Positions 2,111 through 38,557 of a DNA stretch of 64,000 nt are shown here, one piece after another; within the stretch, counting starts at the first letter, position 1, and each line of letters starts with the position of its first letter. The stretch is from an uncultured Chloroflexia bacterium (GTDB lineage Bacteria; Chloroflexota; Ktedonobacteria; Ktedonobacterales; JADMIN01), in contig CAVPDP010000016.1 in the NCBI GenBank assembly GCA_963702665.1, positions 735 through 64,734 of the forward strand, given 5' to 3'. The position numbers and the translations under genes were made by a program. The notes beneath the pieces were generated by a model. That model was not told where the DNA came from, made no database searches, and saw only the letters and a list, made by a program, of their open reading frames with translations.

Positions 2111-2886
2111 GAGACTTTAACGCCATCCTGACCATCGCCTACCGTGACGTAATGAAGTTTCTCCGCGATCCCGCCCGGTTGGTGAGCACGCTCATCTTTC
2201 CGCTCTTCTTCGTGGGGGTGCTGGGCGGCAGCCTCCAGGCCAATCTCGGCGCTGGCGTCCACTATAACCTGCTGGATGTGACGTTTACCGGCATCTTCGC
2301 CATGACGCTCTTTCAGTCCACCTGCCAGGGCATCATCTCGCTGATCGAGGATCGTGAGAACGACTTTAGCCAGGAGATTTTCATCGCGCCGATCTCGCGC
2401 TACTCCATCGTTTTTGGCAAAATCGCGGGCGAGAGTCTGGTGGCGCTGGCGCAGGGAGTGGCCATCGTGCTCTTCGCGGTGCTGGCGCATGTCTCGCTCA
2501 CGCCCGCGCGGCTGCTCGGCTTGATTCCCACGGCGGTGGTGTCGTGTCTGCTGGGTGGCGCGTTCGGCATCATGCTCATCGGCAACTTCAACAGCCAGCG
2601 CGTGGCGAATCAGATACTGCCCTATCTCATCTTCCCGCAGTTCTTTCTGGCGGGCATCTTCTATCCAGTGCGCACGCTGCCGTTGTATCTCGACATCCTC
2701 TCGCGCATCTCGCCGCTCCGCTATGTGGTGGATTTCGCGCGCGGCCTCTTTTATACCGGTTCGGGCGACTATGGCAAAGTGGTGTTGGCCAGCCCGGCGC
2801 TCAACCTGACCGTGATCGCCGCGATGTTTGCCGTCTTTCTCGTCATCGGCACGGTGCTCTTCGTTGGCCGCGAGCGCAACCGCTAA
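2107..2886 (+). CDS. ABC-2 type transporter permease
   Basis: About 6 hydrophobic segments; ATGA overlap with the ATPase gene; DRENDFSQEIFIAPISR motif. Confidence 0.93.
   Translation: MRDFNAILTIAYRDVMKFLRDPARLVSTLIFPLFFVGVLGGSLQANLGAGVHYNLLDVTFTGIFAMTLFQSTCQGIISLIEDRENDFSQEIFIAPISRYSIVFGKIAGESLVALAQGVAIVLFAVLAHVSLTPARLLGLIPTAVVSCLLGGAFGIMLIGNFNSQRVANQILPYLIFPQFFLAGIFYPVRTLPLYLDILSRISPLRYVVDFARGLFYTGSGDYGKVVLASPALNLTVIAAMFAVFLVIGTVLFVGRERNR
2844..2886 (+). repeat. 43-bp 3' end of the permease, copy 1 (also at 4023-4065; 19 bp of it at 5135-5153)
   Basis: CATCGGCACGGTGCTCTTCGTTGGCCGCGAGCGCAACCGCTAA is identical at 4023-4065. Confidence 0.95.
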
Positions 2887-2950
2887 TGGTGAACAGAAAA
2901 ACACCTTCTAAATACCCCGCAGTTGAAGGCCATTTCCGTTTATTAAGGAG

Positions 2951-3232
2951 TCAGGAGGCGCTCAGGATGTTTGCATATATGCGACTGTTTACCGCACACG
3001 CGGAAACCACTTCGTGAAGAACCGTTCCATAGGCGGAGGATTGAATGCCAATCGGCTCATAAAATAGCTCAATCCAACTCCCATGTCGATCCATAGTGTT
3101 TAGGAACTCGTCCACAGTTATCTGACCGCGAATATATGCGTCTACTTCCTGGTCGCGTTCGGAGCGTTGTGTGATAGCCGACTCCGGCTCCGTTGGATGT
3201 GTAGCAGCGCGAATATTAGACGTTGATGGCAT
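2951..3232 (-). CDS. Small hypothetical protein (weak VbhA-antitoxin-like motif)
   Basis: GGGAGG RBS upstream; DAYIRGQITVDEF segment; AT-richer than the flanks. Confidence 0.35.
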   Translation of the reverse strand: MPSTSNIRAATHPTEPESAITQRSERDQEVDAYIRGQITVDEFLNTMDRHGSWIELFYEPIGIQSSAYGTVLHEVVSACAVNSRIYANILSAS

Positions 3233-3415
3233 GCCATTTATCCTCCCTTGATCCTTGCATCGATGCTGCATCTAAAATATGCCATCTGGTGGATGCGGCA
3301 AAAAGTCAAGATGCTGGATGACCAGATTATACTCCTGTTTACAATGTTAATACGAAAGACATATTAACGCGTCCGTGAGCTAGACGTAGACAATTGTAGC
3401 GCCTTACTTGGCCCA

Positions 3416-3832
3416 CTACTGCGTGACCTCCAACGCATCACGGAAGAGCATCGGGTAATCGGCGTGCGCCAGCGTCAACGTGGCCGCGTCGTCTACCGTG
3501 AACCACGCGACCGCGTCGTGCTCGTCTGGCAGCAGATTCCGAGGTTCCCCCTCCCACTGGGTGACTAGGAACAGGTGCATGCGGAGCAGAGAGGCAGTCT
3601 CGTCGCCCATCGCCGGCGCCCGTAGCACGGCCCATTCCCGCCACGCTATGGGCGTCACGCCAAGTTCCTCGCGCAGTTCGCGCACCAGCGCCTGCTCGGC
3701 GGTCTCGCCTGCCTCCACATGCCCGCCTGGCAGGTCCCACACCCCTGGATAGGCCGTACGGCGAGCTGAGCGTTTCCCCAGCAGGAGACGACCCTGGCAG
3801 CATAGCAGTCCGGCAGCGATGTCGATTTCCAC
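3416..3832 (-). CDS. NUDIX hydrolase (MutT-like)
   Basis: Nudix box [24 protein letters not shown]. Confidence 0.92.
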
Positions 3833-3865
3833 GCGTACACCTCGCTCTCACCCGACCTGTGTCCA

Positions 3866-4024
3866 TCAGGACAACCAGGCCGTCATCCGCTCCACGCCGT
3901 AGAACGGTGTCTTCGTGTATTGTTCGTCCAAGTGTCGCATCAACGTCAGATTCTCCGGTGTTTCGCCGCAGGACGCATAGGACGCATAATACCAGCTGGA
4001 GCGCGCCACGCCCGCCAGGGCACA
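3866..4024 (-). pseudogene. IS3-family transposase OrfB internal fragment
   Basis: Manual translation gives CALAGVARSSWYY...ETPENLTLMRHLDEQYTKTPFYGVERMTAWLS*, typical of the IS3 OrfB N-terminal HTH region. Confidence 0.8.
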
Positions 4025-4065
4025 TCGGCACGGTGCTCTTCGTTGGCCGCGAGCGCAACCGCTAA
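4023..4065 (+). repeat. Stranded exact copy of the permease 3' end
   Basis: 43/43 identity to 2844-2886. Confidence 0.95.
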
Positions 4066-4078
4066 CTTACTGTGGCGC

Positions 4079-4300
4079 CTATCTTGTCGATGCTCGATCA
4101 AATGCCCGCGCCAGAGTCACCGTTCGTGAGATGACGTACCCAATGACCAGCGCAAGGGTGATTGCAATGGTGATGAGAGCCGCCAGCCCATCGCCAGTGC
4201 GGGCCAGTAAAAAGCTGATCGTTCCGCCGATAATAAACACCCAAAAGGCACGCCAAATGACCGAGACCACCCACAGTGCCAGACGATTCTTATTGACCAC
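4079..4300 (-). CDS. Small 2-TM membrane protein
   Basis: GAGGAG RBS, GTG start, two hydrophobic helices. Confidence 0.6.
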   Translation of the reverse strand: MVNKNRLALWVVSVIWRAFWVFIIGGTISFLLARTGDGLAALITIAITLALVIGYVISRTVTLARAFDRASTR

Positions 4301-4362
4301 GAGATTTCTCCTCAGATGACACTGTCCGAAGCGCTTGTTCGCTATGCATGGAGCCAGAAACG

Positions 4363-4901
4363 CTATTCGGTGAGGATGGGCCGCGTGAGGATGGCGAGGT
4401 AGGCGCTCCACGGGCCGACCGCCTCGCCATATTGCCGCGCCATCACCTCGACAATCTGGCCGATATGGTTCAAGTCGTGAACCACCCAGGTTGCCAGCAA
4501 TTGGCTCAGTGTGACGGTTCCCAGCGCTGGATGGACGCCTTTGAGCGCGAGCTTCTCAGGGGTGATCTGAAACGCGCTCAGCGTCACCAGATTGTTCGTG
4601 CGCGCCTGCTCGAACGCCGTGAGCAACTGGTCGAGTGAGAAACCCTGATACTGCTCGAACATGGCCGTCCGATCAAACGAGTCGAAGGGTCGTTGCTCGC
4701 CGTATGCGAGGATGATGCGGGCGCGCTCGATCCAGTCGGCCTCTTCGCCGTGGAGCAGGTGCCCGACGATGTCATAGGCGCTCCAGGTATCTGGCCCCTC
4801 GGTGCTGGTGGTCACGCCTCGGGCAGCCCCCGCAGGAGCGCCATCAAGGTAGCTGGCGTCCGGCGCAGAATCTCGACGGCCTGCTCATATTGATATTCCA
4901 T
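4363..4901 (-). CDS. DinB family protein (frameshift near 4815)
   Basis: MEYQYEQAVEILRRTPATL joined to WSAYDIVGHLLHGE...WVVHDLNHIGQI. Confidence 0.85.
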
Positions 4902-5079
4902 GTATGACCCCCCTCTGGAGAGCAAATGGCGAAAGAATGTTGAAAGCGGGCATGACTGACCAGGCCCGTCTTATCCTGACTTGATAGCGCCACGCGGGAT
5001 CTTATAGGCCACTGCAAGTTTACCCCATGTTCGCCAGTCTTGGCTGCCCTCTAGCCGCTGGGCCGTACCTGTTTGCTGT

Positions 5080-5137
5080 AGATGTTCGCGGAGTATCGCG
5101 AGCGCTGCGAGGATAGGCGCGTACGACTCGGCGAGCC
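5080..5137 (+). pseudogene. Internal fragment of a macrodomain gene fused to the third permease-end copy
   Basis: Reads MFAEYRERCEDRRVRLGEP versus MFAEYSERCKDGLVRLGEP at 5644-5700. Confidence 0.75.
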
Positions 5138-5280
5138 GCGAGCGCAACCGCTAGTCACCTCACCACAATTTCCGTTGGCGCGTCTGCCTGCGGGATATGC
5201 ATTTCAGATGGGCATTCGGAAAGGTGTATAGTGGATAGTGGCAGCCTGTTCGGCAGGGCAGCCAGCAAAGAGAGACGAGT

Positions 5281-5505
5281 ATGGCGCGCTTCAAAATCTT
5301 CCCACGCTATCGCAGACCCTCGCTCAAGACCGCGCTAGGCATCACCACAGCAAAACGGCGTTTCAGAAAAGCAACCGGCTATTACGCCATCACGCGGCCC
5401 TTGCGCGCGCCCACCAACTTCAAGCGACGCGTGCTACGACGGGCGGGCTATTATAGTGGGCCAATGAAGTTCCTGCGTTTCCTGCGGCGCTCGCTGCATA
5501 GCTGA
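5281..5505 (+). CDS. Small, highly basic hypothetical protein
   Basis: 74 aa Arg/Lys-rich ORF directly upstream of the macrodomain gene; internal GYY repeat. Confidence 0.65.
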   Translation: MARFKIFPRYRRPSLKTALGITTAKRRFRKATGYYAITRPLRAPTNFKRRVLRRAGYYSGPMKFLRFLRRSLHS

Positions 5506-5520
5506 GTGGAGGCAGGCTGC

Positions 5521-5960
5521 ATGGTTAACCTCGTCACGGGTGATCTCTTCGACTCCGAGGCGCAGACGCTGGTGAATGCGGTCAACTGCGCTGGCGTGAT
5601 GGGTAAGGGCATCGCGCTGGCGTTCAAGAGGCAGTTTCCGGAGATGTTCGCGGAGTATAGTGAGCGCTGCAAAGACGGCCTTGTGCGCCTCGGTGAGCCA
5701 TATCTCTATCGTGGTGAATCGTTCCCCTGGGTGTTGAACTTTCCAACGAAGAGTCACTGGCGATCCGTCTCGAAGCTGGAGGATATCGTCGCCGGGCTGG
5801 CCTACCTGGAGGCGCATTACCGCGCCTGGGGCATCACCTCGCTGGCCGTCCCGCGCTCGGCTGTGGCGCTGGCCAGCTCGAATGGGATGTCGTTGGCCCG
5901 GCGCTCTATGACACGCTTGCCCGGCTGGCTATCCCTGTTGCGTTGTACGCGCCGTTATGA
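5521..5960 (+). CDS. Stand-alone macrodomain protein, DarG/TARG1-like (frameshift near 5850)
   Basis: GDLF, VNAVNCAGVMGKGIALAFK and NFPTKSHW; the shifted frame continues ALGCGAGQLEW...LYAPL*. Confidence 0.88.
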
Positions 5961-6078
5961 TGGCGCGGCTCTGTACCATAATACGGCATGTTGCTAAGGT
6001 GTAAGCGACGCTTCTCATCGCGCCGCGAGTTGTCCACATTGTCCACAATTCTATCCACAAAATTGCGTATGTGGCTTC

Positions 6079-6567
6079 CTACACCGGGGCATTGGTGAAG
6101 GGGCTGCGGCGCGAGACACGCCAGCCGTTATCCGGCTCGTGCTGCAAGATCACCAACATGCCAATGGGCGCGGCGGCATGCGGGCGGCTCAGTGTAAAGG
6201 TATAGGTGGCGCTCTCGTCGTCGAGCTGCAACGGACGCGCGGCGCAGCTCGTGACCGCGCCTTGATGCTGATCGAGCGCGTGAAGTTGCGCCTCAAATGT
6301 GTGTGGATTGAAGGCGCCAGTCGCCAGGGGCGGGACAGGCGCCGGGTCGATCATGGTGGCGAGCGTCTCATACTGCTGGCGCTGAAGCGTCGAGCAGATC
6401 GCGGCAGCGGTATCCGCGCGCATTTGCAGCGAGATCACCTGGCGCAGTCGCACCGCGCCAAACGCCGCTACTCCGCCCAGAAGCAGGAGCGCTATCGCCA
6501 GGAGCAACGTTGCGCGATATCTGCTAAGCGCCTTCGTCATGCTCATTCCGTGCTGCTCATTCGCCAC
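6079..6567 (-). CDS. Membrane-anchored hypothetical protein
   Basis: N-terminal TM helix; GGAGG RBS; intact copy of the duplicated unit. Confidence 0.7.
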   Translation of the reverse strand: MANEQHGMSMTKALSRYRATLLLAIALLLLGGVAAFGAVRLRQVISLQMRADTAAAICSTLQRQQYETLATMIDPAPVPPLATGAFNPHTFEAQLHALDQHQGAVTSCAARPLQLDDESATYTFTLSRPHAAAPIGMLVILQHEPDNGWRVSRRSPFTNAPV

Positions 6568-6649
6568 CGTCGCCTCCTGCTGCCGCCCGTCTACTGTCGC
6601 TACCGCCGCCGCCCGCCGTTGGCAATCGTCCTCACCTTGCCTCCGGCGA

Positions 6650-6679
6650 GTTTAGCAGCCAGCCCTGGCTAACGTCAAC
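6650..6679 (-). promoter_or_regulatory. Sigma70-like promoter (also present in copy 2)
   Basis: TTGACG-N18-TAAACT with extended -10 TG on the minus strand. Confidence 0.5.
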
Positions 6680-6865
6680 TCTCACGATAAGAGCCGCTCA
6701 ACCCGAACCTTCGGGCTAACCGGAAAGTTCGTTTGAAACTTCATAGGGGCAAAAAGGCCAAATCTGAGACGGCTAGACAGATGGAAGGTCATCTCGTGTG
6801 GCTTTTCAGCCGAGTCCGCCGTCTGGTTAACAAGAAATGAAATCATTTGGCCGCAATGATCATAG

Positions 6866-7256
6866 CATACCAATGGGCGCGGCGTCATGCTGGCGACTCA
6901 GGGTAAAGGTATAGGTGGCGCTTTCGTCGTCGAGCTGCAACGGACGCGCGGCGCAGCTCGTGACCGCGCCCTTGATGCTGATCGAGCGCGTGAAGTTGCG
7001 TCTCAAATGTGTGTGGGTTGAAGGCGCCCGTCGCCAGGGGAGGGACAGGCGCCGGGTCGATCATGTTGGCGAGCGTCTCATATTGCTGGCGCTGAAGCGT
7101 CGAGCAGATCGCGGCGGCGGTATCTGCGCGCATTTGCAGCGAGATCACCTGACGCAGTCGCACCGCGCCAAACGCCGCTACTCCGCCCAGGAGCAGCAGC
7201 GCTATCGCCAGGAGCAACGTCGCGCGATATCTGATAAGCGCCTTCGTCATGCTCAT
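6866..7256 (-). pseudogene. 3'-truncated paralog of 6079-6567
   Basis: Same N-terminus; lacks the last ~27 codons; contains frameshifts. Confidence 0.75.
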
Positions 7257-7844
7257 TCTGTGATGCTCATTCGCTACCGTCGCCTCCTGCTGCCGCCCGT
7301 CTACTGCCGCTCCCGCCGCCGCCCACTGTTGGCAATCGTCCTCACCTTGCCTCCGGGGAGTCTAGCAGCCAGTCCTGGCTAACGTCAACTGTCTCGACTA
7401 AGAGGCGACTGAGCACGAACATTCGGGCTAACCGGAAAGTTCGTCTGAAACTTCATAGGGGCAAAAACACCAAATCTGAGACTCCGCGACAGATGGATGG
7501 TCATCTCGTGTGGCTTTTCAGCCGAGTCCGCCGTCTGGTTAACAAGAAATGAAATCATTTGGCCGCAATCATCATCGCGCTACAAATGCCCGTTTGCTTC
7601 TTTCCCCATCCTCTTGAAGCACACGGTTGACAAGAACTCTTGTTCTAAGGTAGACTTTCCGCAGACGGCGTGTGGCCGCTTTTTTGTGGCCCATGTTCTG
7701 CCAGAAATTCTGCTCCTGAGAGCCAGGCCTCGCAGGGGGTAAAGCCGTTTGTCGCGGCATTCATAGAGAACCATTAGAGAATCGCATCGCCTGGATGGTA
7801 GCGGCTGCGCTCATCACTCTCACGTGTGCGGGAGGTATTACAGT

Positions 7845-9027
7845 ATGCGAGAGGTCAGATCCGATACGCCAACACAGCATCTGGCATCGTCCTATGTGGG
7901 CGTTCGGCACACGGCGCCCCAGCGCCCGCGTGAGGCCAGCCAGACCAGCCAGACCAGTTGGAACTTTCAGTCGCCTGCCACCAAAACCACCACAGCGGCT
8001 CCGACAAGCACGCCAACGAGCGTGTCGAGTTCCGGTCGCTGGCGCACCCCTGGCTCAGCAATCGCTACCCCAGCGCCGCTCTCGTCGCTGGTGGTGAGTC
8101 CCTTTGCCGCGCCCGGTCTCGATGCGCGGCCAGACCCGCAGGTGTGGCTGATTGCCAATGTCACTGCGGCGGGCGGCATGCGCGCGCTCGAAGGCGTCGG
8201 GCGCGCGGGCGCGATTCCGGTGGGTCGCCCCTATGGTTTTTTGCGCGCGATTCGTCCGGTCATGCCACCGGGCGCGCTGGGCAACAGTCTCAGATGGCCT
8301 GGACGCCGCGCCCGATAGCGCTGGCATCACGGCTCGTGTGCGCCGTGGCCGCTCCACGCGCAAGGGGCTTGGCTCGGCGGAGGCGTGCCCACCCGGCAAT
8401 AATCTGCCCGCGCCTCGTCCACTGCCACAGATCGTCTCGGCGGTGGAGATCGAAACCGATGCGGGCGTGTTTCGTGTCGAGCGTCCCAACGACGTGCTGA
8501 CGCATAGCGATATCGCGTGGTCCCTGGCGCATCTGGAGGCTGGCGAGCCAGATAGCCTTGTGCCACTGCCCCGGCGCCAGCTTGCGCTCTTGCTGACGCT
8601 CCTGCCAACGCCCGAAGACCCCGAACACCCTGAACTGGATCCGACATGGGGATGGGCGCATCGCCTGCGTGGCCCGTGGGAACGTGGTCCGCTGCATCCC
8701 CGTGGTCGGCTCGGTCGGCTGATTGCCATCGACCCCGATCCCGGCGGCAAAGGGATGCATCGCGCCTGCTTCGAGTTGCTCGGCTCTGAGGATGTCGTCT
8801 GGGCGCTTGGCGTGCCCTGCTTCCGCACCGGCAGCGTCTATGAACTGGCGCCGCTGGGCAAGAGCAACCGCTGGCTCTCGTGGCCGCTCACCCGCACCCG
8901 CAGTCGCGCTGGCAGCCCCGAGCGCCCCGCGTGGGAGATCGCGCGCGTCGTCTATCGCGTGGGATCGCCGCGCTGGCCACTCGCGGGTGTCGTCGAGCCA
9001 CTTGGGCCGATGGGCATCGCGGGCTAA
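7845..9027 (+). CDS. Hypothetical protein (frameshift near 8285)
   Basis: GGAGG RBS; two overlapping long ORFs; Ser/Thr-rich N-terminus. Confidence 0.55.
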
Positions 9028-16561: not shown

Positions 16562-19038
16562 GTGCCAGAAGATCAGGAAACTCTTACACCCACGCGTCGC
16601 CGAACCCGGCGCCAGGATGCCGCTGCGGCGAATGATTCGACAGCGGTGAATACCACACAGGACAGGGGATGACGCCACTGCGTCGGCTGATGCCCCGAAA
16701 CGCCGCCGTTCCACACGCGCCGCTGCCAGCGAGCAGCCAGAGCTTCCCGGCGAGATGTCTGGGGAGTCTGCGCCACCCACCGCGACGGCAAAGCCACGCC
16801 GAACCCGCGCCGCGACCGCCGCGACTGCCGCCGCCAGTGACGCCGTCGTGAGCGATGATGCGCCCGCGCCGAAGCGCCGCGCCAGCCGGTCGCCGGCCGC
16901 CGAAAATGGCGCGTCGGACGAGCCACGTGAGCATACGGCGCCAACCTATACCACGAGCGCGTCTGATGCCTCAAATGGGTCTGAGGCGTTTGATACCGAT
17001 GGTACAGATGCCGCCGCATCGTCCACACGCCGTGTACGTGTGCCGCGAGTGCGTCATGTGCGCGGTGAGCAGGGTGAGCATACCGGAAGCGTCAATGACA
17101 CAACCGGCGTGGCAGCGGACACATCCGCCGCAGGGGCAGCGCCCGCGCTCGATGTGGAACAGACACCGCCTCGCCGTGGATTCACCGTCTGGGTCAACCA
17201 GGAGCAGCGCCCCGGTGAGCGCAGCGCCGAGACGCCCAGTGGAGCGCCGCGCCAGCCACAGCGCCCGCATCAGAATCCGCCGACGCGCGGTGGCCAGGGT
17301 CAGGGGAGCGCGCCCTATCGCCCGGAGTGGGAGTCGCGGAGCGCCACAGCAACGGCCACCAGCGCCGGGACGCGAGCCGGGACGCGAGCAGCAGCAGCAG
17401 CGCCATCCCGGTGGCGAAGGCCAGCAGCAGTATCCCTCGCAGCATCCGCCACAGAATCCGTATCAGCCCTACGCGCCGTATGGCCAGCAGGGTCAGCAGG
17501 GTCAGCAGGGTCAGCAGGGCCAATATGGCGGCAATGGCAACCGCTCGCAAGACCAGCGTGGGCCAGTGCGCGGCGGTCGCCCCTATGGCTACCCACCGTA
17601 TAGCGATCAGCAGGGCGGCCAGCAGGGCGGTCGTGGTTACACTGACCAACGCGATCCGCGCGCGCCTCGTGATCGTCGTCCACCCGCGTCGCCCGCGTCG
17701 TATGCCGAGCAGGCCGAGCGTGGCGGGCCGCTGAATAGCCGCCGCAACCTGGGCAACCAGGGCGTTCGTCGTGGCGTGCCAGATACGCGTGGCGGGCGTC
17801 CGTCGCGTGATGGAAACTCGATGTACACCCATGCGCCCGTGCCCGCAGCCCCCGAGAGCCGCTATGGCTACGGGCAGCGCCAGCCTGCGCCCGCGATTCC
17901 CGCGCGGACGGTAGAGGTGAATGGCCTGCTCTGGCTGGGTGGCGGCCAGGGGATGTCGCCCGCCGAATTGCTGGATGCCCGCAACCTGACCGGGGTCGCC
18001 CGGGTCAATCCTGAGGATGTGCGCCGGTATGGGCTGCGTTCGGGCGATTTGGTCAGCGGCATGGCCGAGGAGCGCGGTGGCCGCCGTCAGGTCGTCCACA
18101 TCGAGCGGGTCAACGACGCCGAGCCAGAAAGCCAGCGCGACCGCCCACTCTTCGAGCAGTTGACGGCCACCTTCCCCGAGCGGCGTATCCGCCTGGAGCA
18201 GGGGTCGCATCCGCCCGTCTCGACCCGGCTGATCGATCTGTTCGCGCCGCTTGGCTTTGGCTCGCGCGCGCTGGTCGTCGCCCCGCCAAAGACGGGTAAG
18301 ACGACGCTGATCCGCGAGGCCGCCGAGGCGGTGCTGACGGGCTATCCCGATGCCGTCGTGATGGCGGTGCTCGTCGGTGAGCGCCCCGAAGAGGTCACTG
18401 ATCTACGCGCCCGGCTAGAGCCACGTGGCGGACTGGTCTACGCGGCCAGCTTCGACGAAGAGACCGAGCGCCATGCCTGGCTGGTTCAGGTGGCGGTCGA
18501 GCATGCGAAGCGGGTTGCCGAGTCCGGGCGCGACGCCTTCATGGTGCTCGACTCGCTGACACGCCTGGCGCGCGCCGAGAATCTGGCGTCACGAGGCGCC
18601 GGACGCACGCTCTCTGGCGGTATCGACGCCCAGGCGCTGGATACCGGACGGCGCGCATTTGGCGCGGCCCGCAACCTGGATGAGGGTGGCAGCCTGACGA
18701 TTCTGGCGACCTGTCTGGTGGATACCGGCAGCCGCCAGGACGACGTGGTCTACGAGGAGTTCAAGGGTACCGGCAACATGGAGCTGCACCTCTCACGCGA
18801 ACTCTCGCAGCGGCGGCTCTTCCCGGCGGTCGATGTCATCAAATCGAGCACACGCCGCGAGGAAATGTTGCTGACACCTGAGGAACTGCGCGCGACGACG
18901 GCCCTCCGCCGCCGACTGGCCGATGTGCCGCCCGCCCAGGCGACCCAGCAGCTGCTCAACGTGCTGGAGCGCACGCCATCCAACGCGGCGCTGCTTCAGG
19001 CGCTGGAGCAGAGCGGCTGGCTCACCAGCACGCGGTAG
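16562..19038 (+). CDS. rho: Transcription termination factor Rho-like ATPase with long disordered N-terminus (frameshifts near 16668 and 17340)
   Basis: [51 protein letters not shown] and STRREE; AGGAGG RBS before GTG at 16562. Confidence 0.88.
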
Positions 19039-19074
19039 CGTGACAGCGCCTCCAATGCGTTTCTTCCGTTTCTC

Positions 19075-19112
19075 ATGGCCTCCCATCACATACGGTGGGG
19101 GGCCATTTGTTA
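19075..19112 (+). terminator. Hairpin terminator after rho
   Basis: ATGGCCTCCCA...TGGGGGGCCAT followed by TTGTT. Confidence 0.6.
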
Positions 19113-19250
19113 TGGGCGATTCGAGGGTGAGTGGCGCCATCTCCGATTGAGATATTGGCCTCTACTTGCGAATATTGGGTGTATGTATTACTATTAATGG
19201 CGTGAGCGTCACCACCAGCGCCACCAATGGTATTTGGAAGGTAGGGCAAC

Positions 19251-19469
19251 ATGGCAGACGGGGAAAAGATCACCCTGCAAGAAGCGTTTCTGCGCTATCG
19301 CGTGCCGATAGCGACACTGCGCTACTGGCTCGACAAGCGAGAACTGACGCGGGACTATGACAGAAAGCGCCGAGTAGTTGTGGATGTTGCTGAGTTAGAG
19401 CAGCGGCTAGAACAGCAACGGCGGGATCGAGAAATCGGCCCAAAAATTGACCCCGGCGCCGCCGCATAG
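19251..19469 (+). CDS. Small HTH DNA-binding protein (MerR/excisionase-like)
   Basis: ITLQEA...VPIATLRYW pattern. Confidence 0.7.
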   Translation: MADGEKITLQEAFLRYRVPIATLRYWLDKRELTRDYDRKRRVVVDVAELEQRLEQQRRDREIGPKIDPGAAA

Positions 19470-19548
19470 CAGAAGCCGGGGATAGACTGCAATCCACGTT
19501 CATGGCGCGCAGTCAAGATGATTGTACACGATGGGTTGGATGCAAGAC

Positions 19549-19667
19549 ACACCCCCTTCGAGAAAGCCAGGAAACATGGGCGTTGCGCGTGTTACACAAA
19601 GGGGTGTTTACCCACTCCTTTGAAAAGCCGGGAATCATGAGGTGTTGCGCGTGTTACACAAAGGGGT
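19549..19667. repeat. Two tandem ~55-bp units with imperfect terminal inverted repeats
   Basis: GTTGCGCGTGTTACACAAAGGGGT is identical at 19582-19605 and 19644-19667. Confidence 0.85.
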
Positions 19668-19704
19668 AGATTTGAAAGCTACTCCCTTAAGGAAGCGAGA
19701 CAAC

Positions 19705-20586
19705 ATGGGCATTGATGGCAAGCAATCGGAGCAAATCGTCGGTACACTTGTCCCTATCGAGCAGGATACTGTGCCATTCTACGGCCACGATCTAATAGCT
19801 GTCAGGCTGCCAGATGGGCGGATCGCTGCTGTACTGCGCTGGCTCTGCGAGGGGCTAAATCTTGGCGTTCAGTCCCAGATGCGCCACATCCAAGGGCGGA
19901 CAGCGCTGGCCGAGGGGCTGGTATCCGTGCGTGTAGACACCGCTGGTGGCCTGCAGACATGCCGGCGCTAACCCTCGATGTATTGCCGGGCTGGCTCTTC
20001 TCTATAGATGAGCGACCGCGTCAAAGAAGAAGCGCGCGCTGATGTAGTGCTGTTTCAGCGCGAATGCGTGAAGGCGCTGGCCGATTACTTCACTCGCAAG
20101 CATCCGCCTGCTCTCCCGGCGCTGGCCGACACCACGGCGGCAACGATCATCATAGAGCAGATCACCGATTTAACGGGCGTCATCAACCTGCTACGCGAAC
20201 ACCTGGAGGCATTGCTCGTATTGCCTGGCCAGGTGGCCGACCTCTCCGTACAGGTGGGCGAGACGCGGGTGCTCGTCGAGGCGCTGGCGACACGCCAGGA
20301 CAGCACAGAGACGCGCCTGGAGGCGGTAGACGAACGCACCCAGCGCCTGACCCCGACGCATACGCGGGCGGCGCAGGAGATGGTAGACCGCATGGTACGC
20401 GAGACGAGGAAGCTCCCGGCGCCCCTCACCTACGCGATCATCTATGGGCGGCTCAAGCATCGCTTCCGCGTCGGCAGCTACAAAGAAGTTCCCGATGATC
20501 GCTTTGACGAGTTGGTGGCATACCTTCGCGACGAACTGCGCCGCGCAACCAGTGGGGAAGCGCCTGAGCAGGAGAATCTGTTCTGA
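19705..20586 (+). CDS. Phage antirepressor N-terminal (P22_AR_N-like) + ORF6C domain protein (frameshifts near 19960-20010)
   Basis: TVPFYGHDLIAV...LRWLCEGLNL and LPGWLFSI; C-terminal IYGRLKHRFRVGSYKEVPDDRFDE. Confidence 0.8.
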
Positions 20587-20657
20587 TTGAGACCGCCTCG
20601 TGGCGGGCGCAATGGGTCGAGCGTATCCAATAGCAATCCGACGCCATGTCATCGTAG

Positions 20658-20698
20658 TGGCCTCCCATCATGATCGGCGGGGGGTTATTTTTGTGGGC
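20658..20698 (+). terminator. Hairpin terminator, a degenerate copy of the rho terminator
   Basis: TGGCCTCCCATCA...CGGCGGGGGGTTATTTTT. Confidence 0.6.
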
Positions 20699-30284: not shown

Positions 30285-30302
30285 GCGGCGGATCCTTTCA
30301 TG

Positions 30303-31718: not shown

Positions 31719-31854
31719 ACGTGCGGGCCTCCAGCCACGGATATCCACTGCGCCGCCCCATCAGGCTACCACAGGCAACCAAATGGCTCAACCACACGAC
31801 GCAAAGACCTCGGTCGCGCCTCATGCGCCGTCTCCGCTGGCCGACGCGCGCTTT

Positions 31855-32391
31855 TTAGTCGGCCTTCTCCGTCGCGGGCGCGTCGCGGAGCAGTGCGATG
31901 GCGTCGGTCAGCCAGCGGCGTTCGGTCTCCATGTGCAGCAGGATGCGCTCGATGGCCAGCCGCGCGCCCAGGTCGTATTCGTGTCGTGGCGCGCGCTCGT
32001 AGGATGCCCGCTGCCCCGCCAGGTCGGCCTGACGCTGCTCCAGCAGAGCGATGGCCTCGGTGGGTGGCAGGTGCGCGAGGAACATCAGGCCGATATCGCC
32101 GGGCGCCGAGAAGCGATCCGCGTGCGCCAGCGTTGTGCGCAGCAAATCCTCGAAGGCCTGCTCGCCCTTCGGCGTGATCGAATAGACCTTGCGCGGCGGA
32201 CGGTTGCCCTCCTGCTCGGTGCGCATTTGTACATACCCGTCGCGGCTGAGACGATCCAAAATGGCATAGGCGGTCGGCTTCTTCATATCGGTGACACGGC
32301 TGAGATTGCGTTCGATAAACTCGTTGATCTGATAGCCATGTTGGCTCTGCGCCCGCAAAATGCCGAGCAGCAGCAGTGCGCGCTCATCCAT
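31855..32391 (-). CDS. PadR family transcriptional regulator
   Basis: LLGIL...HGYQI and PRKVYSITPKG. Confidence 0.92.
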   Translation of the reverse strand: MDERALLLLGILRAQSQHGYQINEFIERNLSRVTDMKKPTAYAILDRLSRDGYVQMRTEQEGNRPPRKVYSITPKGEQAFEDLLRTTLAHADRFSAPGDIGLMFLAHLPPTEAIALLEQRQADLAGQRASYERAPRHEYDLGARLAIERILLHMETERRWLTDAIALLRDAPATEKAD

Positions 32392-32463
32392 GGAGGTCTC
32401 CCTTCGCAGAGCGAGTATCCACTACCGTATAGGATCAAAGTAGCATCCATTCCTTGCGGCGAT

Positions 32464-32532
32464 TAGTCACACTTGACTATTTGGCGCCGCCGTGCTATGT
32501 TTGTACTGTGATAGTCAGCATTGACTAGTCAA
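32464..32532. promoter_or_regulatory. Candidate PadR operators
   Basis: TAGTCA-N4-TGACTA at 32464-32479 and 32512-32527 in the divergent intergenic region. Confidence 0.7.
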
Positions 32533-32564
32533 TAGCAAATTAATCGTCTCTAAGGATACCATCT

Positions 32565-33854
32565 ATGAGCGCTCATCTGCCAGAAGATTCCAACATCGCC
32601 AGCGCCGCGACACAGAAACGCTCGCGCAACGCCATCCTGATGGTGGCGCTGGTCGTGCTGGTTGATATCACCGGGTTTGGCCTGATTCTGCCGCTGCTGC
32701 CCTTCTGGGCGGAAAAGCTCGGCGCCAATCCCTTCGAGGTTGGCCTGATTCTCACCGTCTATGCGCTGGCGCAGTTCCTGTTTACGCCGGTGCTCGGCAT
32801 GCTTTCCGACCGCTTCGGGCGGCGTCCGGTCATTCTGGTCTCGCTGCTCATCGAGGCGCTGGGGTTCGCGCTGACGGCGCTGGCGGGCACGCTGCCGCTG
32901 CTCCTGGTGGCGCGCTTCGTCGGTGGCCTGGGCGCGTCGAATATCGGCTCGGCGCAGGCGGTGGTGGCCGATGTCACCGCGCCCAAAGATCGCGCGCGCG
33001 GCATGGGTATGGTCGGCGCGGCGATTGGCGTTGGCTTCGTCGTTGGCCCGGCGTTCGGTGGGGTGCTGGCCAGCTTTGGCAGCACGGTGCCCTTCTGGGC
33101 GGCGTTCGGTGTCGCGCTGGTGAATGCGGCGCTGGTGTTGTGGCTGCTGCCAGAGACGCGTGGCCAGCGTGCGGCGTCCGCCCAACCCGCAAAGCGGTTC
33201 GCCCTCTTCGCTGGCTGGCAGCGGGCGCTCCGGACACCAGCCATCGCGCGGCTGATCGTCGTCAATCTGTTCTTTACGCTCGCATTCACGGCGATGGAGG
33301 CGGTCTTCCCGCTGTTTACGCAGCGCGTCTTTGGCTGGCAGGCGACGCAGAATGGCTACCTCTTCACCTATGTTGGGGTCATCATTGTCATCATGCAGGG
33401 CGGCCTGGTTGGCCAGTTGGTCAGGCGCTTTGGTGAGCGTGGTGTCCAGATTGCCGGGCTGGCGCTGCTGGCCGTTGGTCTGGCGCTGCTGCCCTTCAGC
33501 GGGACACTGGCCGTCATGTTGGTGGCGCTGGCGCTCTTGAGCATCGGCGACGGCGCGGTGACGCCGACCAACAACGCGCTGCTCTCGCTGGCGGCCCCCG
33601 CCGATGCGCAGGGCGAGACGCTGGGGCTATCGCAGGGCATGGCTGGCCTGGGCCGGATGGTTGGGCCGCTGCTCGCTGGCTGGCTCTTTGGCGTCGGGAT
33701 CGGCCTGCCGTTCTTCGTCGCCGCCGCGCTGGCGTTGGTGGCGCTCCTGGTGGCGCTACCGCGCATCGCGATGCCATCCCATGCGGACGCACAGCAGGCG
33801 AGCATGATACAATCGGTGGAATCGCCTGAGATGGCTTCCTCGCCATCCCGTTAA
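32565..33854 (+). CDS. MFS efflux transporter (TetA/DHA1-like)
   Basis: GMLSDRFGRRPV motif A and GFVVGPAFGG motif C; about 12 TM segments. Confidence 0.93.
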   Translation: MSAHLPEDSNIASAATQKRSRNAILMVALVVLVDITGFGLILPLLPFWAEKLGANPFEVGLILTVYALAQFLFTPVLGMLSDRFGRRPVILVSLLIEALGFALTALAGTLPLLLVARFVGGLGASNIGSAQAVVADVTAPKDRARGMGMVGAAIGVGFVVGPAFGGVLASFGSTVPFWAAFGVALVNAALVLWLLPETRGQRAASAQPAKRFALFAGWQRALRTPAIARLIVVNLFFTLAFTAMEAVFPLFTQRVFGWQATQNGYLFTYVGVIIVIMQGGLVGQLVRRFGERGVQIAGLALLAVGLALLPFSGTLAVMLVALALLSIGDGAVTPTNNALLSLAAPADAQGETLGLSQGMAGLGRMVGPLLAGWLFGVGIGLPFFVAAALALVALLVALPRIAMPSHADAQQASMIQSVESPEMASSPSR

Positions 33855-33925
33855 GCATCGTTTCTCAGCCAGGTATCTGGTGATCGCATAGTTGAACACT
33901 CTGCTGTTCAGAAGGAGATATCACA

Positions 33926-34318
33926 ATGGTTGCGACGGTAGCGTCCTGGGTGGTGCGCCTGGGTGGTCTGGTGATGATCGTGCTTGGCCTGCTGTTCTGG
34001 ACGGGCCACGCGCTGACACTGGTGAATGCGCATATGACACTCGGTCTGCTGGTGGTGCTGGCGCTCTGGGTGCTGGCGGGAATCGCGCTGCAACGGGGCG
34101 TGAGTGTTGGCCTGGTGATTGGCGCGTTCGTGCTGGGTATCGTGGTGATTGGCTTTGGCATGTCACAGACATCGCTGATGTCAGGATCCACCCGTGCGGT
34201 GGTCGAGATCATCAGGGTGGTTCATCTGCTGCTTGGCCTGGCGCTGATTAGCTTCGGCGAGATCATCGGCGGGCGGCTGCGGCGGCTGGGCCAGGGAAGC
34301 AAGCCCGTCGTCGCGTAA
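33926..34318 (+). CDS. 4-TM membrane protein (paralog of 49767-50189)
   Basis: LGLLFW...HMxLG...VVHLLL; AAGGAG RBS. Confidence 0.8.
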   Translation: MVATVASWVVRLGGLVMIVLGLLFWTGHALTLVNAHMTLGLLVVLALWVLAGIALQRGVSVGLVIGAFVLGIVVIGFGMSQTSLMSGSTRAVVEIIRVVHLLLGLALISFGEIIGGRLRRLGQGSKPVVA

Positions 34319-34342
34319 AATCGCACACACTCGTTGTCCATT

Positions 34343-34383
34343 GGGACGCTGGAGGCATCGCGCTTCCGGCGTCCCGTTTTTTT
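34343..34383 (+). terminator. Intrinsic terminator
   Basis: GGGACGCTGGAG...TTCCGGCGTCCC followed by a T7 run. Confidence 0.8.
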
Positions 34384-34460
34384 GTGGCGCCGCTCTACGT
34401 TTTCACGAGGCTCAAGATTCGTTAGTCATTCATAATGATTCTTAGATATTAGTGATACAC

Positions 34461-34490
34461 TTGCAAATACTCAGTGGCATCTGCTATACT
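34461..34490 (+). promoter_or_regulatory. Sigma70-like promoter
   Basis: TTGCAA-N18-TATACT with extended -10 TG. Confidence 0.55.
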
Positions 34491-34560
34491 GATGTGGGCG
34501 CTTGGTATACTTACGATGACCGCGATGAGCGGAACGTCGAAAGTGTGAAGGCGCACGATA

Positions 34561-34785
34561 ATGGCAGAGAAGATGCGCGGGCTTCCCTTGCCTTACCTGA
34601 AGGCATGGCGAATCAAGAAATTCATCGGGCAAAGTGAATTAGCGGATATGGCGAGGATGGGGCGGGCCACGGTGACACGCGCTGAGCGCGGGGATGAAGT
34701 GGTGAGTTTCGCGAATATCCGCAAGTTAGCGGAGGCATTGGGGATCAGTCCTGACCAGTTGTTGAAGGCGCCAGATGGAGAGTAG
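34561..34785 (+). CDS. XRE family HTH protein
   Basis: LKAWR...QSELADMA...TVTRAERG...KLAEALGI. Confidence 0.88.
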   Translation: MAEKMRGLPLPYLKAWRIKKFIGQSELADMARMGRATVTRAERGDEVVSFANIRKLAEALGISPDQLLKAPDGE

Positions 34786-34788
34786 AGC

Positions 34789-35692
34789 ATGAGCGACCAG
34801 CAGAACCAGGAAACCACCAGCAGCCCATTCGAGACAATCCGGCACACGACAGACGAGGGAGCAGAGTATTGGAGCGCCCGCGAGTTGGCCGAGGTACTCG
34901 GCTACAGCCGAGTTGGCCAGACTTTTACCCACCGTCAATCGACGCGAAAAAGGCCTGCGAGGGCAGTGGACAAGCCGTCTCAGACCATTTTCTGGAGACG
35001 CGGCAAATGGTCACCTTGGCTCTGGTTCCCAACGCGCGGTAGAAGATTTCCACCTCTCGCGCTACGCCTGCTATCTGGTCGTGCAGAACGCCGACCCCAG
35101 CAAGCCGATTGTAGCGCTGGGGCAGACCTATTTCGCCGTCAGAACGCGCGAGGCGGAACTGGCCGAAGAAGCCGTCTTGCAGGGCTTGAGCGAAGATCAG
35201 CTACGTCTCTACGTGCGCAATCAACTGACCAGCTATAACAAGCAACTTGCCGAGGCAGCCTACGCCGCTGGCGTCCCCAGCAATGGCTTCGCCGCATTCC
35301 AGGATCACGGCTACCGTGGCTTATACGCCGGAGAAACGGCCCGCGACATCGCAGCACGCAAGGATCTGGCGAAGGGCCAGCACATCCTGGACTGGATGAA
35401 TTCCGACGAACTCGCCGCCAACCTTTTCCGCGCATCGCTCACCGAGCAGAAGCTGCGCAACGACCCAACCATCGCCGACAAAGCGGCGGCCAGCCGCGCG
35501 CATCACGAGGTAGGCGCAGCCGTCCGGGGTGTCATCATCGAGCAGGGTGGCACGCCGCCAGAGCAGCTACCCACGCCAGAGCAGTCCATTCAACAGCTTC
35601 AGCGGCACGAGCAAAAGCGTATCGAGGCGGGACGTCAGGCAACGCTCCAGCCGCCGCTGTTCCCACCGCCTACGCCAGCCAGCGACAAGTGA
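34789..35692 (+). CDS. dinD: DNA damage-inducible protein D family (frameshifted)
   Basis: [47 protein letters not shown] and [16 protein letters not shown]. Confidence 0.88.
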
Positions 35693-35798
35693 CGTTTGAC
35701 GCTGTGAACCCTGGCGCTCGATATCTCCCGCGCCCTATCAGATTTCCGCTGATTTCCCAGGTGAATAGCATGCTAGACTGGCGGCAAGGAGGTCGCCC

Positions 35799-37627
35799 AT
35801 GCCAGACGTTACGTTGCCACCTCGCGACGAGATTCCCATCGAGCAAACCTGGGATCTCGCCAGCGTCTACCCGTCGGATGAGCGCCTGGGAGGCTGCCGC
35901 TCGTGAGGCGCTGGCCGCTGTTCCCACGCTGACCCAGTGGCGGCGACAGCTTGCCACAGCGCCCGCCGTGCTGCTGGAGGCGCTGCGTGCCCGCGACCAC
36001 TGGGTCACTGTGGGCTGGCGACTGCGCCAGTACGCCAATATGCAGGTGAAGGCCGACGCCACCGACACCGACGCCAATGAGCGGCTGCAGCGCGCCAACA
36101 ATGTCCGCGCCCGCATCAACGCCGCGCTCGCCTGGATGGAGCCGGAGCTATGCGCGCTAGAGCAGCCGCGCCTGGATGAGCTGCTGGCCGCCTCGCCCGA
36201 TCTGGCCGCCTATACGCACGCGTTGGAGGCGCTCCGCAGCCGACGGCGAACCACTGCGCCGCCGGAACTAGCTGGCGGAGATCGAATCGCTCGCCGACAC
36301 GTTCTACGTCACGTATAAGACGCTGGTATCGAGCGAGATGCGTTTCGCCAGCCCGCGTGATAGCCAGGGCAACGCCCACCCGCTGACGACCGCCACGTTT
36401 CACGCGCTCATGCGCCAGCCCGACCGCACGCTGCGCCAGGCGACATATGAGGCGTATGCCGACGGCTTTGGCGCGCTGAGCCAGACCTGCGCTAACCTGC
36501 TGGCGGGCGCCTTCAGCGGGCAATCGACATTGGCGACGGCTCGCGGCTATAGCAGCGCGCTCGATGCGGCGCTCGACGCGACCGGGCTGCTGCGTACCGG
36601 CGATGAGCCGGGCGTCTTTGCGACGCTGCTCGAAACCTGCCAGCGCCACGTGCCCCTATGGCATCGCTACTACGATCTGCGGCGGCGCGCGCTTGGGCTG
36701 GAGACGCTGCGCCCGTGGGATATGGATGTCTCGCTGGCCGCCGCTGCGCCCCAGGTCAGCTACGACGAGGCGCGGACGACGATTCTGGCGGCGGTTGCCC
36801 CGCTCGGCGACGACTACTGGCGACATTGCGGCGCGGTCTCTACGAGGAGCGCTGGGTAGACTGGGCGACGAATGTGGGCAAGCTGGCGGGCGCGGAGCAG
36901 AGCGGCTGCTGGGGCACACATCCGTTCGTGCTGCTGAGTTGGGATGCGTCGGTCATCAGCATGAGCGCACTGGCGCACGAGTTGGGCCACGCGATGCACA
37001 TGTATTCCACCTGGCGCGATCAACTGCCAATCTATGATGACGTGGTGGACTACCTGAGCCGAGACAGCCTCCACCTTCCACCAGGCGCTGCTGCGCGCCC
37101 ACCTCTTGCGCACGTCAAGCGATCCCGCGCTGCGGCGGGCGGTGCTCTCGGAGGCGCTGACCTACTACGAGCGCTACCTGCTCATCATGCCGCTGCTGGC
37201 GCGCTTCGAGATGGAGGGCCACCAGCGCAGCGAACAGGGCCAGTCGCTCGGCGTGCGCTGGCTCTCCGCCCGCATGCTGGAACTGCTGCGCGAGGCATAC
37301 GGCCCGGCAGTCACGCTCGACGATACAGACGCGGCGCGCGCGGGGCTGTTGTGGGCGCAGATGCCGCATCTCTATCTCAATTTTTACACCCACCAGTATA
37401 CGCTGGGGCTGGCGTCGGCCAATCTGCTGGCGGACGCCGTACTGCGCGAGGGTGAGCCAGCGGCGGCGCGCTATCGTCGGCTCATCAGCCTGGGGTCATC
37501 GGTCTATCCGCTCGATGCGCTGGCCGAGGCGGGCGTTGATCTCACCACGCCGGAGCCGCTAGAGCGCGCCTTCGCCACACTGGCATCCCTGCTGGACGAA
37601 CTGGAAGCGGCGATAGAGGCAGGATAA
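35799..37627 (+). CDS. pepF: Oligoendopeptidase F (M3B) (several frameshifts)
   Basis: TWDLASVY N-terminus, LAHELGHAMH zinc motif, PHLYLNFY. Confidence 0.88.
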
Positions 37628-37725
37628 TATGAGGTAGGCGCAGACTGACGCGCATCGCTTGCCTATTCTGATATGGTACAATTCGCGAGACATACGACCA
37701 TAGCACGCAATGGAGGAAACCCTGT

Positions 37726-37968
37726 ATGGCAGCGCCCTCGCGACATGACCCTGAACTCGAAGCGCTGCTCCGCGAAGGGGCGGCGGAGATCGTTACTCTG
37801 AACCCCCATATTGGCGCTCCACCACCGGCCTATACAGACGAGGAGTGCGCCGCCATCGTGCGCGACGATGAGGAGCTAGACGCCCTCTGGAACTCGCCAG
37901 AAGGCCAGCGCGCTCAATCTCTTGGCTATTCGGCGTCAGATGCGGTTGACGAGGATCGCGGCGAGTAG
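37726..37968 (+). CDS. Putative antitoxin
   Basis: Small acidic ORF ending SASDAVDEDRGE, directly upstream of a PIN toxin. Confidence 0.7.
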   Translation: MAAPSRHDPELEALLREGAAEIVTLNPHIGAPPPAYTDEECAAIVRDDEELDALWNSPEGQRAQSLGYSASDAVDEDRGE

Positions 37969-37987
37969 AGGAAGCAGCGAATAGCGA

Positions 37988-38488
37988 ATGCCGAGCTATT
38001 TCTTTGACTCAAGCGCCATCGTCAAGCGCTATCATCAGGAGCCAGGGAGCCTTTGGGTTCGCTCCGTCTGTGATCCTCGTACTCGGCCTTTGCTGTATCT
38101 TGCCCAACTTGCCCAGGTTGAGGTCGTGGCGGCCTTGCGCAGAACTGGACGCCGCGAAGGTCTGCATCCAGCATTTGTTGATTCTCTCGTCAACCTTTTT
38201 GAGCGGCAACTTGTACTCAGCGATCCCACGCGGCCAGCGCCTGTGTATCGTCTCATCCCACTGTCAAGCAGCGTGCTTACACTGGCGACACGTCTGTGCA
38301 ATCGTTACTGGGACGTTCATCCTCATCCCCTCCGAAGTTTAGATGCGATCCAGCTATCAGCAGCGCTTCTCACAGCAGCCGCCATCGCGGATGAACTCGT
38401 CCTTGTAACCGCTGATGTTCGCCTCGCAGCGATTGCTCCTTTGGAGGGCTTGCAGGTCATCAACCCTTTGTCTCCGCCGCATGTGTAG
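37988..38488 (+). CDS. vapC: PIN-domain toxin (VapC family)
   Basis: YFFDSSAIVKRY, VEV, LRSLDAIQL and VTAD. Confidence 0.9.
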   Translation: MPSYFFDSSAIVKRYHQEPGSLWVRSVCDPRTRPLLYLAQLAQVEVVAALRRTGRREGLHPAFVDSLVNLFERQLVLSDPTRPAPVYRLIPLSSSVLTLATRLCNRYWDVHPHPLRSLDAIQLSAALLTAAAIADELVLVTADVRLAAIAPLEGLQVINPLSPPHV

Positions 38489-38490
38489 GC

Positions 38491-38557
38491 AGCGCGCATT
38501 TGCCACGCTGGCGGCATGCTGGACGAGTTGCAGGCGGTGGTAGAGGCAGTTCACTGA
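38491..38557 (+). pseudogene. Stranded, diverged copy of the pepF 3' end
   Basis: About 47/60 nt match to 37563-37622 by manual alignment; reads [19 protein letters not shown]. Confidence 0.8.

Follow-up and report, generated by a model that had tools for sequence, protein, structure and literature searches.

Recombinase-free gene blocks bracketed by duplicated gene ends in a Ktedonobacterales genome

The stretch of DNA described here, referred to as the window, comprises 64,000 nt (G000:C16:735-64734) of genome G000, an uncultured bacterium of the Ktedonobacterales whose assembly totals 3.55 Mb in 30 contigs (71% complete, 62% GC). Four small blocks of cargo genes lie in it behind the 3' ends of three genes, an ABC-2 permease gene, rho and the oligoendopeptidase gene pepF, and behind each block stands a further, stranded copy of the gene end in front of it. 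All four blocks and their trailing copies had been noticed in an earlier, sequence-only reading of the window, and all were found to exist. Genes were called with a custom script and their boundaries are approximate. Single-base assembly errors split many genes, and those at 3415, 4812, 5848, 19958, 20016 and 37059 have no counterpart in short-read contigs. The source genome is represented in soil metagenome runs, of which X5 and X6 belong to studies other than that of X1; X1 may be the source sample. The features of the three loci are as follows (open reading frame, ORF).

2107..2886, plus strand: ABC-2 permease, the anchor gene, whose last 43 nt (2844-2886) are the working repeat copy (Pfam PF01061, repeat)
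2887..4022, no overall strand: cargo block 1, the newest, with a NUDIX gene at 3416-3832 on the minus strand (absent in G003; bridged by contigs)
4023..4065, plus strand: stranded permease end, 43 nt, 100% identity (spanned by an X5 contig, 3971-4198; an X1 contig is without 3967-4048)
4066..5134, no overall strand: cargo block 2, with a small unassigned ORF at 4079-4300 (minus) and a DinB_2 gene at about 4363-4902 (minus) (Pfam)
5073..5137, plus strand: piece from the interior of a macro-domain (DarG-like) gene, with 79% identity to 5642-5699, fused via a shared GCC to the third permease end
5135..5154, plus strand: the oldest of the stranded permease ends, comprising 19 nt and a stop codon of its own, with ancestral downstream DNA behind it (repeat, relatives, X5 contig)
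5281..5997, plus strand: downstream neighbours, a small ORF (5281-5505) and a macro-domain gene (5521-5997) (Pfam, relatives)
17290..19117, plus strand: rho and its terminator hairpin, of which 19076-19117 is the working copy (Pfam, repeat)
19118..20657, plus strand: cargo block 3, with a 72-aa ORF (19251-19469) and a phage-type antirepressor gene (19705-20586) split by the assembly (indels corrected by X1 and X2 contigs)
20658..20698, plus strand: stranded, worn rho terminator, then ancestral intergenic DNA (repeat, relatives)
37106..37627, plus strand: 3' part of oligoendopeptidase F (M3), with 37563-37622 as the working repeat copy (Pfam, repeat)
37628..38490, plus strand: cargo block 4, with an 80-aa ORF (37726-37968) and a PIN (VapC-like) gene (37988-38488) (Pfam)
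38491..38557, plus strand: stranded copy of the pepF end (78% identity), which has a stop codon of its own and overlaps that of queC (repeat)

At the permease locus, the 43-nt gene end at 2844-2886 recurs unchanged at 4023-4065; the third copy that had been listed with these two is present at 5135-5153 but is only 19 nt long. The intervals 2618-3026, 3971-4198 and 4984-5223 were all bridged by contigs of X5 and X6, and the frameshift at 4812 in the DinB gene is missing from short-read contigs. An empty site was recovered in one X5 contig that joins 2866 to 5135 (depth 3.2, with 70 letters on the short side), and most of the second copy has been lost in one X1 contig. In G003 the permease gene lies 99 nt ahead of the small ORF that here trails the third copy (5281-5505), and in G006 it is followed by 8 kb of other genes without a stranded copy. 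The fusion of the macro-domain fragment to the third permease end is a probable illegitimate joint, with GCC shared at the one far joint that could be judged. The complete DarG-like gene at 5521-5997 has no DarT neighbour and is absent from the same locus in G003. The DinB_2 gene (4361-4902) has DNA matches of 71-86% at unrelated places in most of the family's genomes.

The copy of the rho terminator is weaker than the sequence-only reading had implied, with 79% identity over 42 nt (19076-19117 against 20658-20698); the first 13-mer of this repeat occurs at only these two positions in the genome. Block 3 is missing from six of seven genus mates, where the next gene lies 96-185 nt behind rho and where the DNA behind rho matches that behind the stranded terminator. 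One X1 contig extends from rho into the cargo; no bridging of the stranded copy was found among the metagenome contigs listed. The pepF repeat was recovered as described (37563-37622 against 38491-38549, 78% over 60 nt), and X1 and X2 contigs cover the stranded copy only as far as an extra base at 38515. The working pepF end departs from G002 and G005 at three codons, as read by hand, and at these the stranded copy agrees with the residues of the two relatives; because of this, and because it keeps its own stop codon, it is likely to be the older tail of the gene. The gene pair of block 4 is 72% identical to a locus in G015 that adjoins a different gene. The expectation that relatives would hold empty sites was borne out for the permease (G003) and for rho (6/7 genus mates) but not for pepF, and among the contig joints listed from the metagenome runs there was no empty rho or pepF site.

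The four blocks measure 863-1540 nt, in agreement with the earlier estimate of about 0.9-1.6 kb, and have a GC content of 56.5-59% against 62% for the genome. Of the cargo labels assigned previously, NUDIX, DinB_2, the P22_AR_N antirepressor and PIN were recovered (the last two with scores under the Pfam cut-off), but the HTH and vapB labels had no match in Pfam, PADLOC or PHROG. The earlier statement that the window has no integrase held for the entire contig, from which tyrosine and large serine recombinase domains are absent. No restriction-modification genes were found in the four window blocks.

A genome-wide census of gene-end copies was then made in 20-kb tiles, with segmental duplications, repeats longer than 200 nt and high-copy repeats removed. 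It returned 56 isolated repeats, of which 23 were gene ends with a copy downstream, 1 had the copy upstream, 3 had both, 3 were at 5' ends and 26 were unlabelled; the polarity of 23 to 1 gives p = 1.5e-6 in a sign test, and an untiled run gave 27 downstream against 4 among 59 repeats. A naive, unfiltered exact-match scan of gene ends, of the kind that had been suggested as a check, showed no asymmetry (44 down, 38 up), because long tandem duplications and paralogues swamp the signal. The predicted excess over chance was obtained after filtering but not in the naive scan. The anchor genes include smpB, trpA, tsaD and genes for FKBP, YqeY, an amidase, a CoA transferase and TauE. Tile scans of other genomes were underpowered: two cases were found in 0.42 Mb of G004, one in 0.42 Mb of G002 and one in 0.4 Mb of G015, compared with 6.5 per Mb in G000, and no case in 0.2 Mb of G022, 0.2 Mb of G056 or 0.4 Mb of G040; G056 has one case outside the scanned tiles. 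The repeated acquisition of small numbers of genes behind gene ends, as proposed from the window, was supported across the genome and the genus, with one to a few genes gained at a time.

Further measurements were made on a hand-picked list (28 protein-gene sites for repeat edges, 29 sites for cargo), from which an insertion sequence end (C6:35565), the repeat pair of a diversity-generating retroelement (DGR), tRNA sites, pairs of paralogues and any site whose anchor was not clear were left off. The cargo spans 628-7895 nt, with a median GC content of 55%. Most of it consists of defence and toxin-antitoxin genes, those for Abi and restriction functions being well represented. Its 103 ORFs are the longer ones of each block, about a quarter of 136 candidates, mostly antisense shadows, having been excluded. 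Families among them include AbiEii, Gp49-HTH, IrrE with a QatC-like partner, AbiJ, Schlafen, two PIN and two ParE-like proteins, and two blocks (C5:20193 and C7:93081) hold restriction-modification pairs. Recombinase, integrase and transposase domains were found neither in the window cargo nor in the 103 ORFs. The longest exact inverted match between cargo ends was 4-9 nt across the 29 blocks, so that there are no terminal inverted repeats, and the blocks differ in this and in the lack of a transposase domain from an insertion sequence or a miniature inverted-repeat transposable element. The claim that the anchors share no motif was upheld, since no junction motif stood above random draws at the 29 sites (lowest 14/200). 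Truncated genes at cargo ends numbered one in 29 (the macro-domain fragment), in a weak search against 2.6 Mb of DNA of relatives and the genome itself.

The repeats start 14-114 nt before the stop codon (median 62, 28 sites) in any codon phase and end within 3 nt of the stop codon at 13/28 sites, the identical 43-nt permease copy among them; anchor ORFs reach their stop codon before the cargo, so that the 3' end of the target is restored. The left edge varies at one and the same gene, with 43 and 19 nt at the permease and 67, 61, 56 and 48 nt at smpB. Repeat lengths straddle 30 bp, those of 43, 60 and 42 nt (the last at 79%) lying above it and the third permease copy (19 nt) and six sites of 22-26 nt below. 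Of the mismatches between copies, 60/114 are at third codon positions; this is significant against a uniform distribution but cannot tell a pair of alleles from in-place decay. One base at which the stranded copy of an SCP2 gene differs from the working copy is shared with 5/5 relatives. Hot-spot behaviour of the SCP2 gene was rejected, the stranded copy being present in 0/5 relatives that have the gene. The cargo at this site (G000:C18:153067-157825, L064) encodes an IrrE-like peptidase and a QatC/QueC-like protein and may be an incomplete Qat-type defence system.

These edges bear on the possibility that cargo inserts without donor homology and that the target is duplicated in place, by staggered-break repair or template switching, with selection keeping the events that spare the gene. 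Identical or near-identical repeats (43 nt at 100%, 107 nt at 99%) would be expected of such a process, which would also account in one step for one cassette at different genes; two blocks hold restriction-modification systems, and for insertions of such systems double-strand breakage has been proposed and repeats are often seen to span start or stop sites, according to a survey (Furuta, Abe and Kobayashi 2010, PMC2853133). The young, identical repeats end at the stop codon, however, rather than in intergenic DNA where insertion would be harmless; stranded copies share alleles of relatives, most cargo is without a DNase domain, and Ku was not found in six genomes. Duplication in place was on balance judged improbable.

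A comparison between hosts is given by a two-gene AbiEii block that lies behind smpB in G000, G003, G004 and G007. The blocks are 70-76% identical in DNA between hosts, compared with 87-92% for smpB itself, and the stranded smpB end starts 67, 61, 48 and 56 nt before the stop, respectively, with different DNA behind each. In three of the four genomes the stranded copy resembles the smpB of its own genome at least as closely as any other smpB. Two genus-level metagenome contigs add cases with junctions like those of G004 and G007, one of them visibly decaying, and the stranded copy was found in 0/37 genomes of the family outside the genus. In genus g5 (G056, G011, G052), two other genes supply the ends that bracket a homologous cassette with a protein identity of 53-57%; in one case the orientation is reversed. 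A stranded gene end accompanied 7/7 near-full-length AbiEii matches in the family, at three different anchor genes and with a tight cassette spacing of 1.2-1.35 kb, and was absent at four tested matches that were partial or out of the family. Among 80 metagenome AbiEii loci, 56 were evaluable; besides the smpB case, 3 of 55 distant homologues were bracketed, one of them by a simple repeat. Bracketing follows the host family and not the cassette, and mobility borne by the AbiEii cassette was ruled out on these counts.

Assembly artefacts of a mixed-strain, long-read metagenome bin, or chance, were also considered as a source of the repeats. Single-base indels are many, and there are at least 11 head-to-tail duplications of 0.4-6 kb (88-98% identity; divergence of about 2.4-10%, mostly at third codon positions). 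One of these lies in the window:

6141..7588, no strand: head-to-tail duplication of 710 nt with 92% identity between the copies; the sequence is present once in genus mates (sequence comparison)

Its mid-gene joint shows an imperfect micro-homology of 12 nt, and its junction had no exact match in metagenome contigs. In many of the long duplications a stop codon marks one edge, and a short spacer of unique sequence is present. They may be true merodiploids of diverged alleles or the assembly of mixed strains, and possibly, the 710-nt case included, they result from the same process as the blocks, with long anchors and little or no new cargo. Those of 2.8-6.4 kb with 2.4-7% divergence were noted at C2:3930-15822, C5:54175-65018, C7:59411-71856, C7:168025-176473, C18:309255-317074, C24:39703-45287 and C27:17132-24165; the C5 duplication doubles dprA. 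As regards the gene-end copies, the permease junctions are spanned by short-read contigs from other studies and the passage from rho into its cargo by one contig, the smpB structure recurs in three other genomes and two metagenome contigs, and the polarity of 23 to 1 also speaks against artefact or chance. An artefact is refuted at the permease and smpB sites by the contigs and the other genomes, and is very improbable for the pattern in general.

Elements that integrate at the 3' ends of tRNA and protein genes are known to restore the target, to leave the displaced 3' fragment downstream and to accrete in tandem. The blocks might be remnants of site-specific integrative elements (prophages, integrative and conjugative elements or cis-mobilisable elements) whose integrase was lost or acts in trans and whose addictive genes were kept. 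A partial tRNA copy was found within 4 kb of 6/35 tRNA genes. Copies of tRNA-Sec in G001, G002, G018, G047 and G057 start at query base 33-35, in the anticodon loop; where both ends share one contig the islands measure 6-31 kb, and in G002 an integrase fragment adjoins the tRNA gene. Such a start agrees with the anticodon-loop rule for tRNA integration, as stated in PMC2853133. The PIN block of G000 is 75% identical to one beside the stranded tRNA-Sec copy in G018. The tRNA sites are best read as decayed integrase islands, and the antirepressor cargo at rho is also in keeping with such an origin.

Ordinary integrase islands exist in G000, which has three tyrosine and three serine recombinase genes, all outside the blocks and off the window contig; a tyrosine recombinase gene lies beside tRNA-Lys (G000:C29:223-1905) and a large serine recombinase gene near tRNA-Ser/Leu (C19:36726-40090). 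A recombinase gene was seen in no examined cargo block, however, and about two dozen unrelated protein targets stand against six recombinases. The protein-gene sites resemble the tRNA-Sec site of relatives in architecture, but the left boundary is fixed only at tRNA-Sec and varies at the permease and at smpB, behind which no integrase-bearing island was found in 30 loci (1.5 kb of flank each). There is no shared motif or arm repeat, and one cassette family uses three anchors at its tight spacing. Remnants of integrative elements were for these reasons regarded as a rather unlikely source of the blocks. Two tRNA sites have other arrangements: the 5' part of tRNA-Asn has a copy downstream, behind a ParE-like pair (G000:C24:24950-26150), unlike the usual island geometry, and the 5' part of tRNA-Arg(CCT) has a 63-nt identical copy upstream (C18:19448-22991).

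The reading that was preferred, with a rough probability of 0.6, is that homology at a gene end anchored DNA from a relative, whose far end was joined illegitimately, leaving the old tail of the gene stranded. The anatomy, the empty sites, the polarity, the variable left ends and the absence of recombinases are direct observations. The stop-codon edge of young repeats, the free left edge, the allele-like differences and the GCC fusion fit incoming DNA that brought its own gene end. A fragment consisting of the end of gene X and the donor's following DNA would enter the cell, probably by natural transformation, and RecA would pair the gene part, with homology ending at the stop codon because intergenic DNA differs. 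Micro-homology would then join the foreign tail to a position within the gene end, 14-114 nt upstream of the stop codon; alternatively, the fragment would close into a circle and integrate by one crossover, linear and circular intermediates giving the same product. The gene would remain whole, the old tail would be left behind the cargo, and later events would stack nearest to the gene. The repeat would permit precise loss of the block and would provide the block with a second, short arm of homology with which to enter relatives again. The donor route, the enzymes, the linear or circular intermediate and the reuse of the stranded copy are what we infer from these observations.

The competence genes proposed as a check were found, with DprA and RecA in G000 and ComEC in 6/6 genus mates and in 31/31 genomes of good quality in the order, the unpublished G090 among them. 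Of the non-homologous end-joining genes, also proposed as a check, Ku was found in 0/6 genomes. The route had been described as sequence-independent, which is correct as to motifs but overstated, as one end is probably homology-dependent. On the whole, recurrent recombinase-free gain at gene ends stands, but the scars of homology-facilitated illegitimate recombination (HFIR), to which it had been likened, are usually deletions, and the tRNA sites look like integrase islands.

Several observations weigh against homology-anchored capture. No donor was identified for any block, ComEC was not found in G000 itself (71% complete), and repeats of 19-25 nt are short for a single crossover by RecA. The bias of 3' over 5' ends (23 vs 1-2) needs selection as an added assumption, and the third-position share of 60/114 is near the roughly 44% estimated for in-place duplication and decay. 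An empty pepF site was not found, G002 and G005 having 2.2 kb of other DNA without a stranded copy, and convincing brackets were absent around homologues of DinB at five loci and of vapC at two loci of relatives. The rho cargo is phage-like, the macro-domain fragment could derive from another copy of a mobile family, and the tRNA-Sec sites indicate that the same architecture can arise from integrase islands. The identities of the AbiEii cassette and of smpB rank the hosts roughly alike, so that vertical descent with repeat homogenisation fits equally well. Classical HFIR usually deletes recipient DNA, as described in PMC3240628; here recipient DNA is duplicated, and deletions would escape the scan.

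A more tentative extension, judged less likely than not, treats the family as having an integron-like cassette system without an integrase or an att motif, in which conserved gene tails would serve as docks and the stranded tail as a homology arm for precise exit and for re-entry into any relative with that gene, irrespective of the DNA downstream, the same host pathway perhaps also making the kilobase tandem duplications. At smpB the AbiEii cassette kept its arm while the cassette DNA diverged to 70-76%, and the arm tracks the host allele.

Other repeats were noted in passing. In the window, diverged repeats at 9106-9499/10392-10778 (82%) and 9969-10129/11596-11753 (73%) lie among proline-rich, zinc-ribbon-like paralogues. 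Two families of palindromes resembling repetitive extragenic palindromic elements are also present, one at 39289-39354, 39823-39885, 45679-45740, 54797-54858 and 62741-62799, which is abundant in the genus and family, and another at 57100-57239, 60253-60306 and 63725-63871. A DGR-like locus elsewhere in the genome (G000:C13:144284-146307, L219) comprises two 124-nt repeats with 87% identity, a gene resembling bAvd and a reverse transcriptase gene broken by stops or a frameshift. A route through an RNA intermediate was set aside, as this broken gene is the sole reverse transcriptase found.

The minimal mobile elements of Neisseria are integrase-free cassettes beside conserved genes in a transformable lineage, and the blocks are like them in this respect; those elements are exchanged by double crossover in both flanking genes and are not known to leave a duplicated gene end, whereas the gene end is duplicated here. 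The pattern itself was published under the term insertion with long target duplication, which the sequence-only reading had not cited, and of which an earlier description is reportedly that of Nobusato et al. in 2000. In PMC2853133 the class is described for restriction-modification genes as a small insert without a mobility gene, with a long, variable direct repeat and an empty site in relatives; many cases are in naturally competent species, and neither there nor in the other literature found is a mechanism demonstrated. The term was extended to "other DNAs" in PMC3457768. The sites in G000 agree with the class in having inserts below 20 kb (628-7895 nt), no mobility gene, empty sites and a unique repeat. 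They differ in number, since the known cases in the same source are restriction-modification systems, a few dozen across many species, and about two dozen sites are present here in one genome; in cargo that is mostly non-nuclease; in being 3'-polarised, stacked and often bounded by repeats of less than 30 bp; and in signs of allele displacement and host-lineage dependence. The window blocks work like this class, but by its restriction-modification definition only C5:20193 and C7:93081 are members.

Partial parallels to the proposed route are also on record. In Escherichia coli, duplications of 109-950 bp arose in 56/60 clones from DNA that was homologous at one end and had been trimmed and re-circularised (PMC3240628); HFIR and this form of integration share with the blocks one homologous end and one illegitimate joint with short or no micro-homology, but those duplications were plasmid-derived and followed E. 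coli conjugation, and natural gene ends are involved here. At type VI secretion effector and Rhs loci (PMC5361080), as here, a module enters behind an anchor, old 3' parts are shifted, arrays grow without an integrase and HFIR was proposed; there a toxin domain is replaced at a few dedicated loci, whereas here the anchor is restored and any housekeeping gene end may be used. Transformation makes tandem duplications in pneumococcus that require pre-existing repeats (PMC3784515), and repeats, mostly below 30 bp, flank 10-18% of small variable segments (PMC2884548). No paper on genome-wide gene-end duplication outside restriction-modification systems was found in the literature searched, although the supplements of PMC2853133 may hold such cases.

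The pattern is already known, and what is new is the census, the polarity and the dependence on host lineage; G000 provides a strong example of it but no new system. Statistics that single cases do not allow become possible with about two dozen of them in one genome, namely on the strict polarity, the stop-codon edge, the free left edge, allele displacement and the dependence on host lineage as opposed to cargo. The results point to a host recombination route by which defence and toxin-antitoxin genes are gained and which is missed by integrase-based island finders, and the stranded ends are of practical use as a marker when small defence genes are sought in soil bacteria without cultured representatives.

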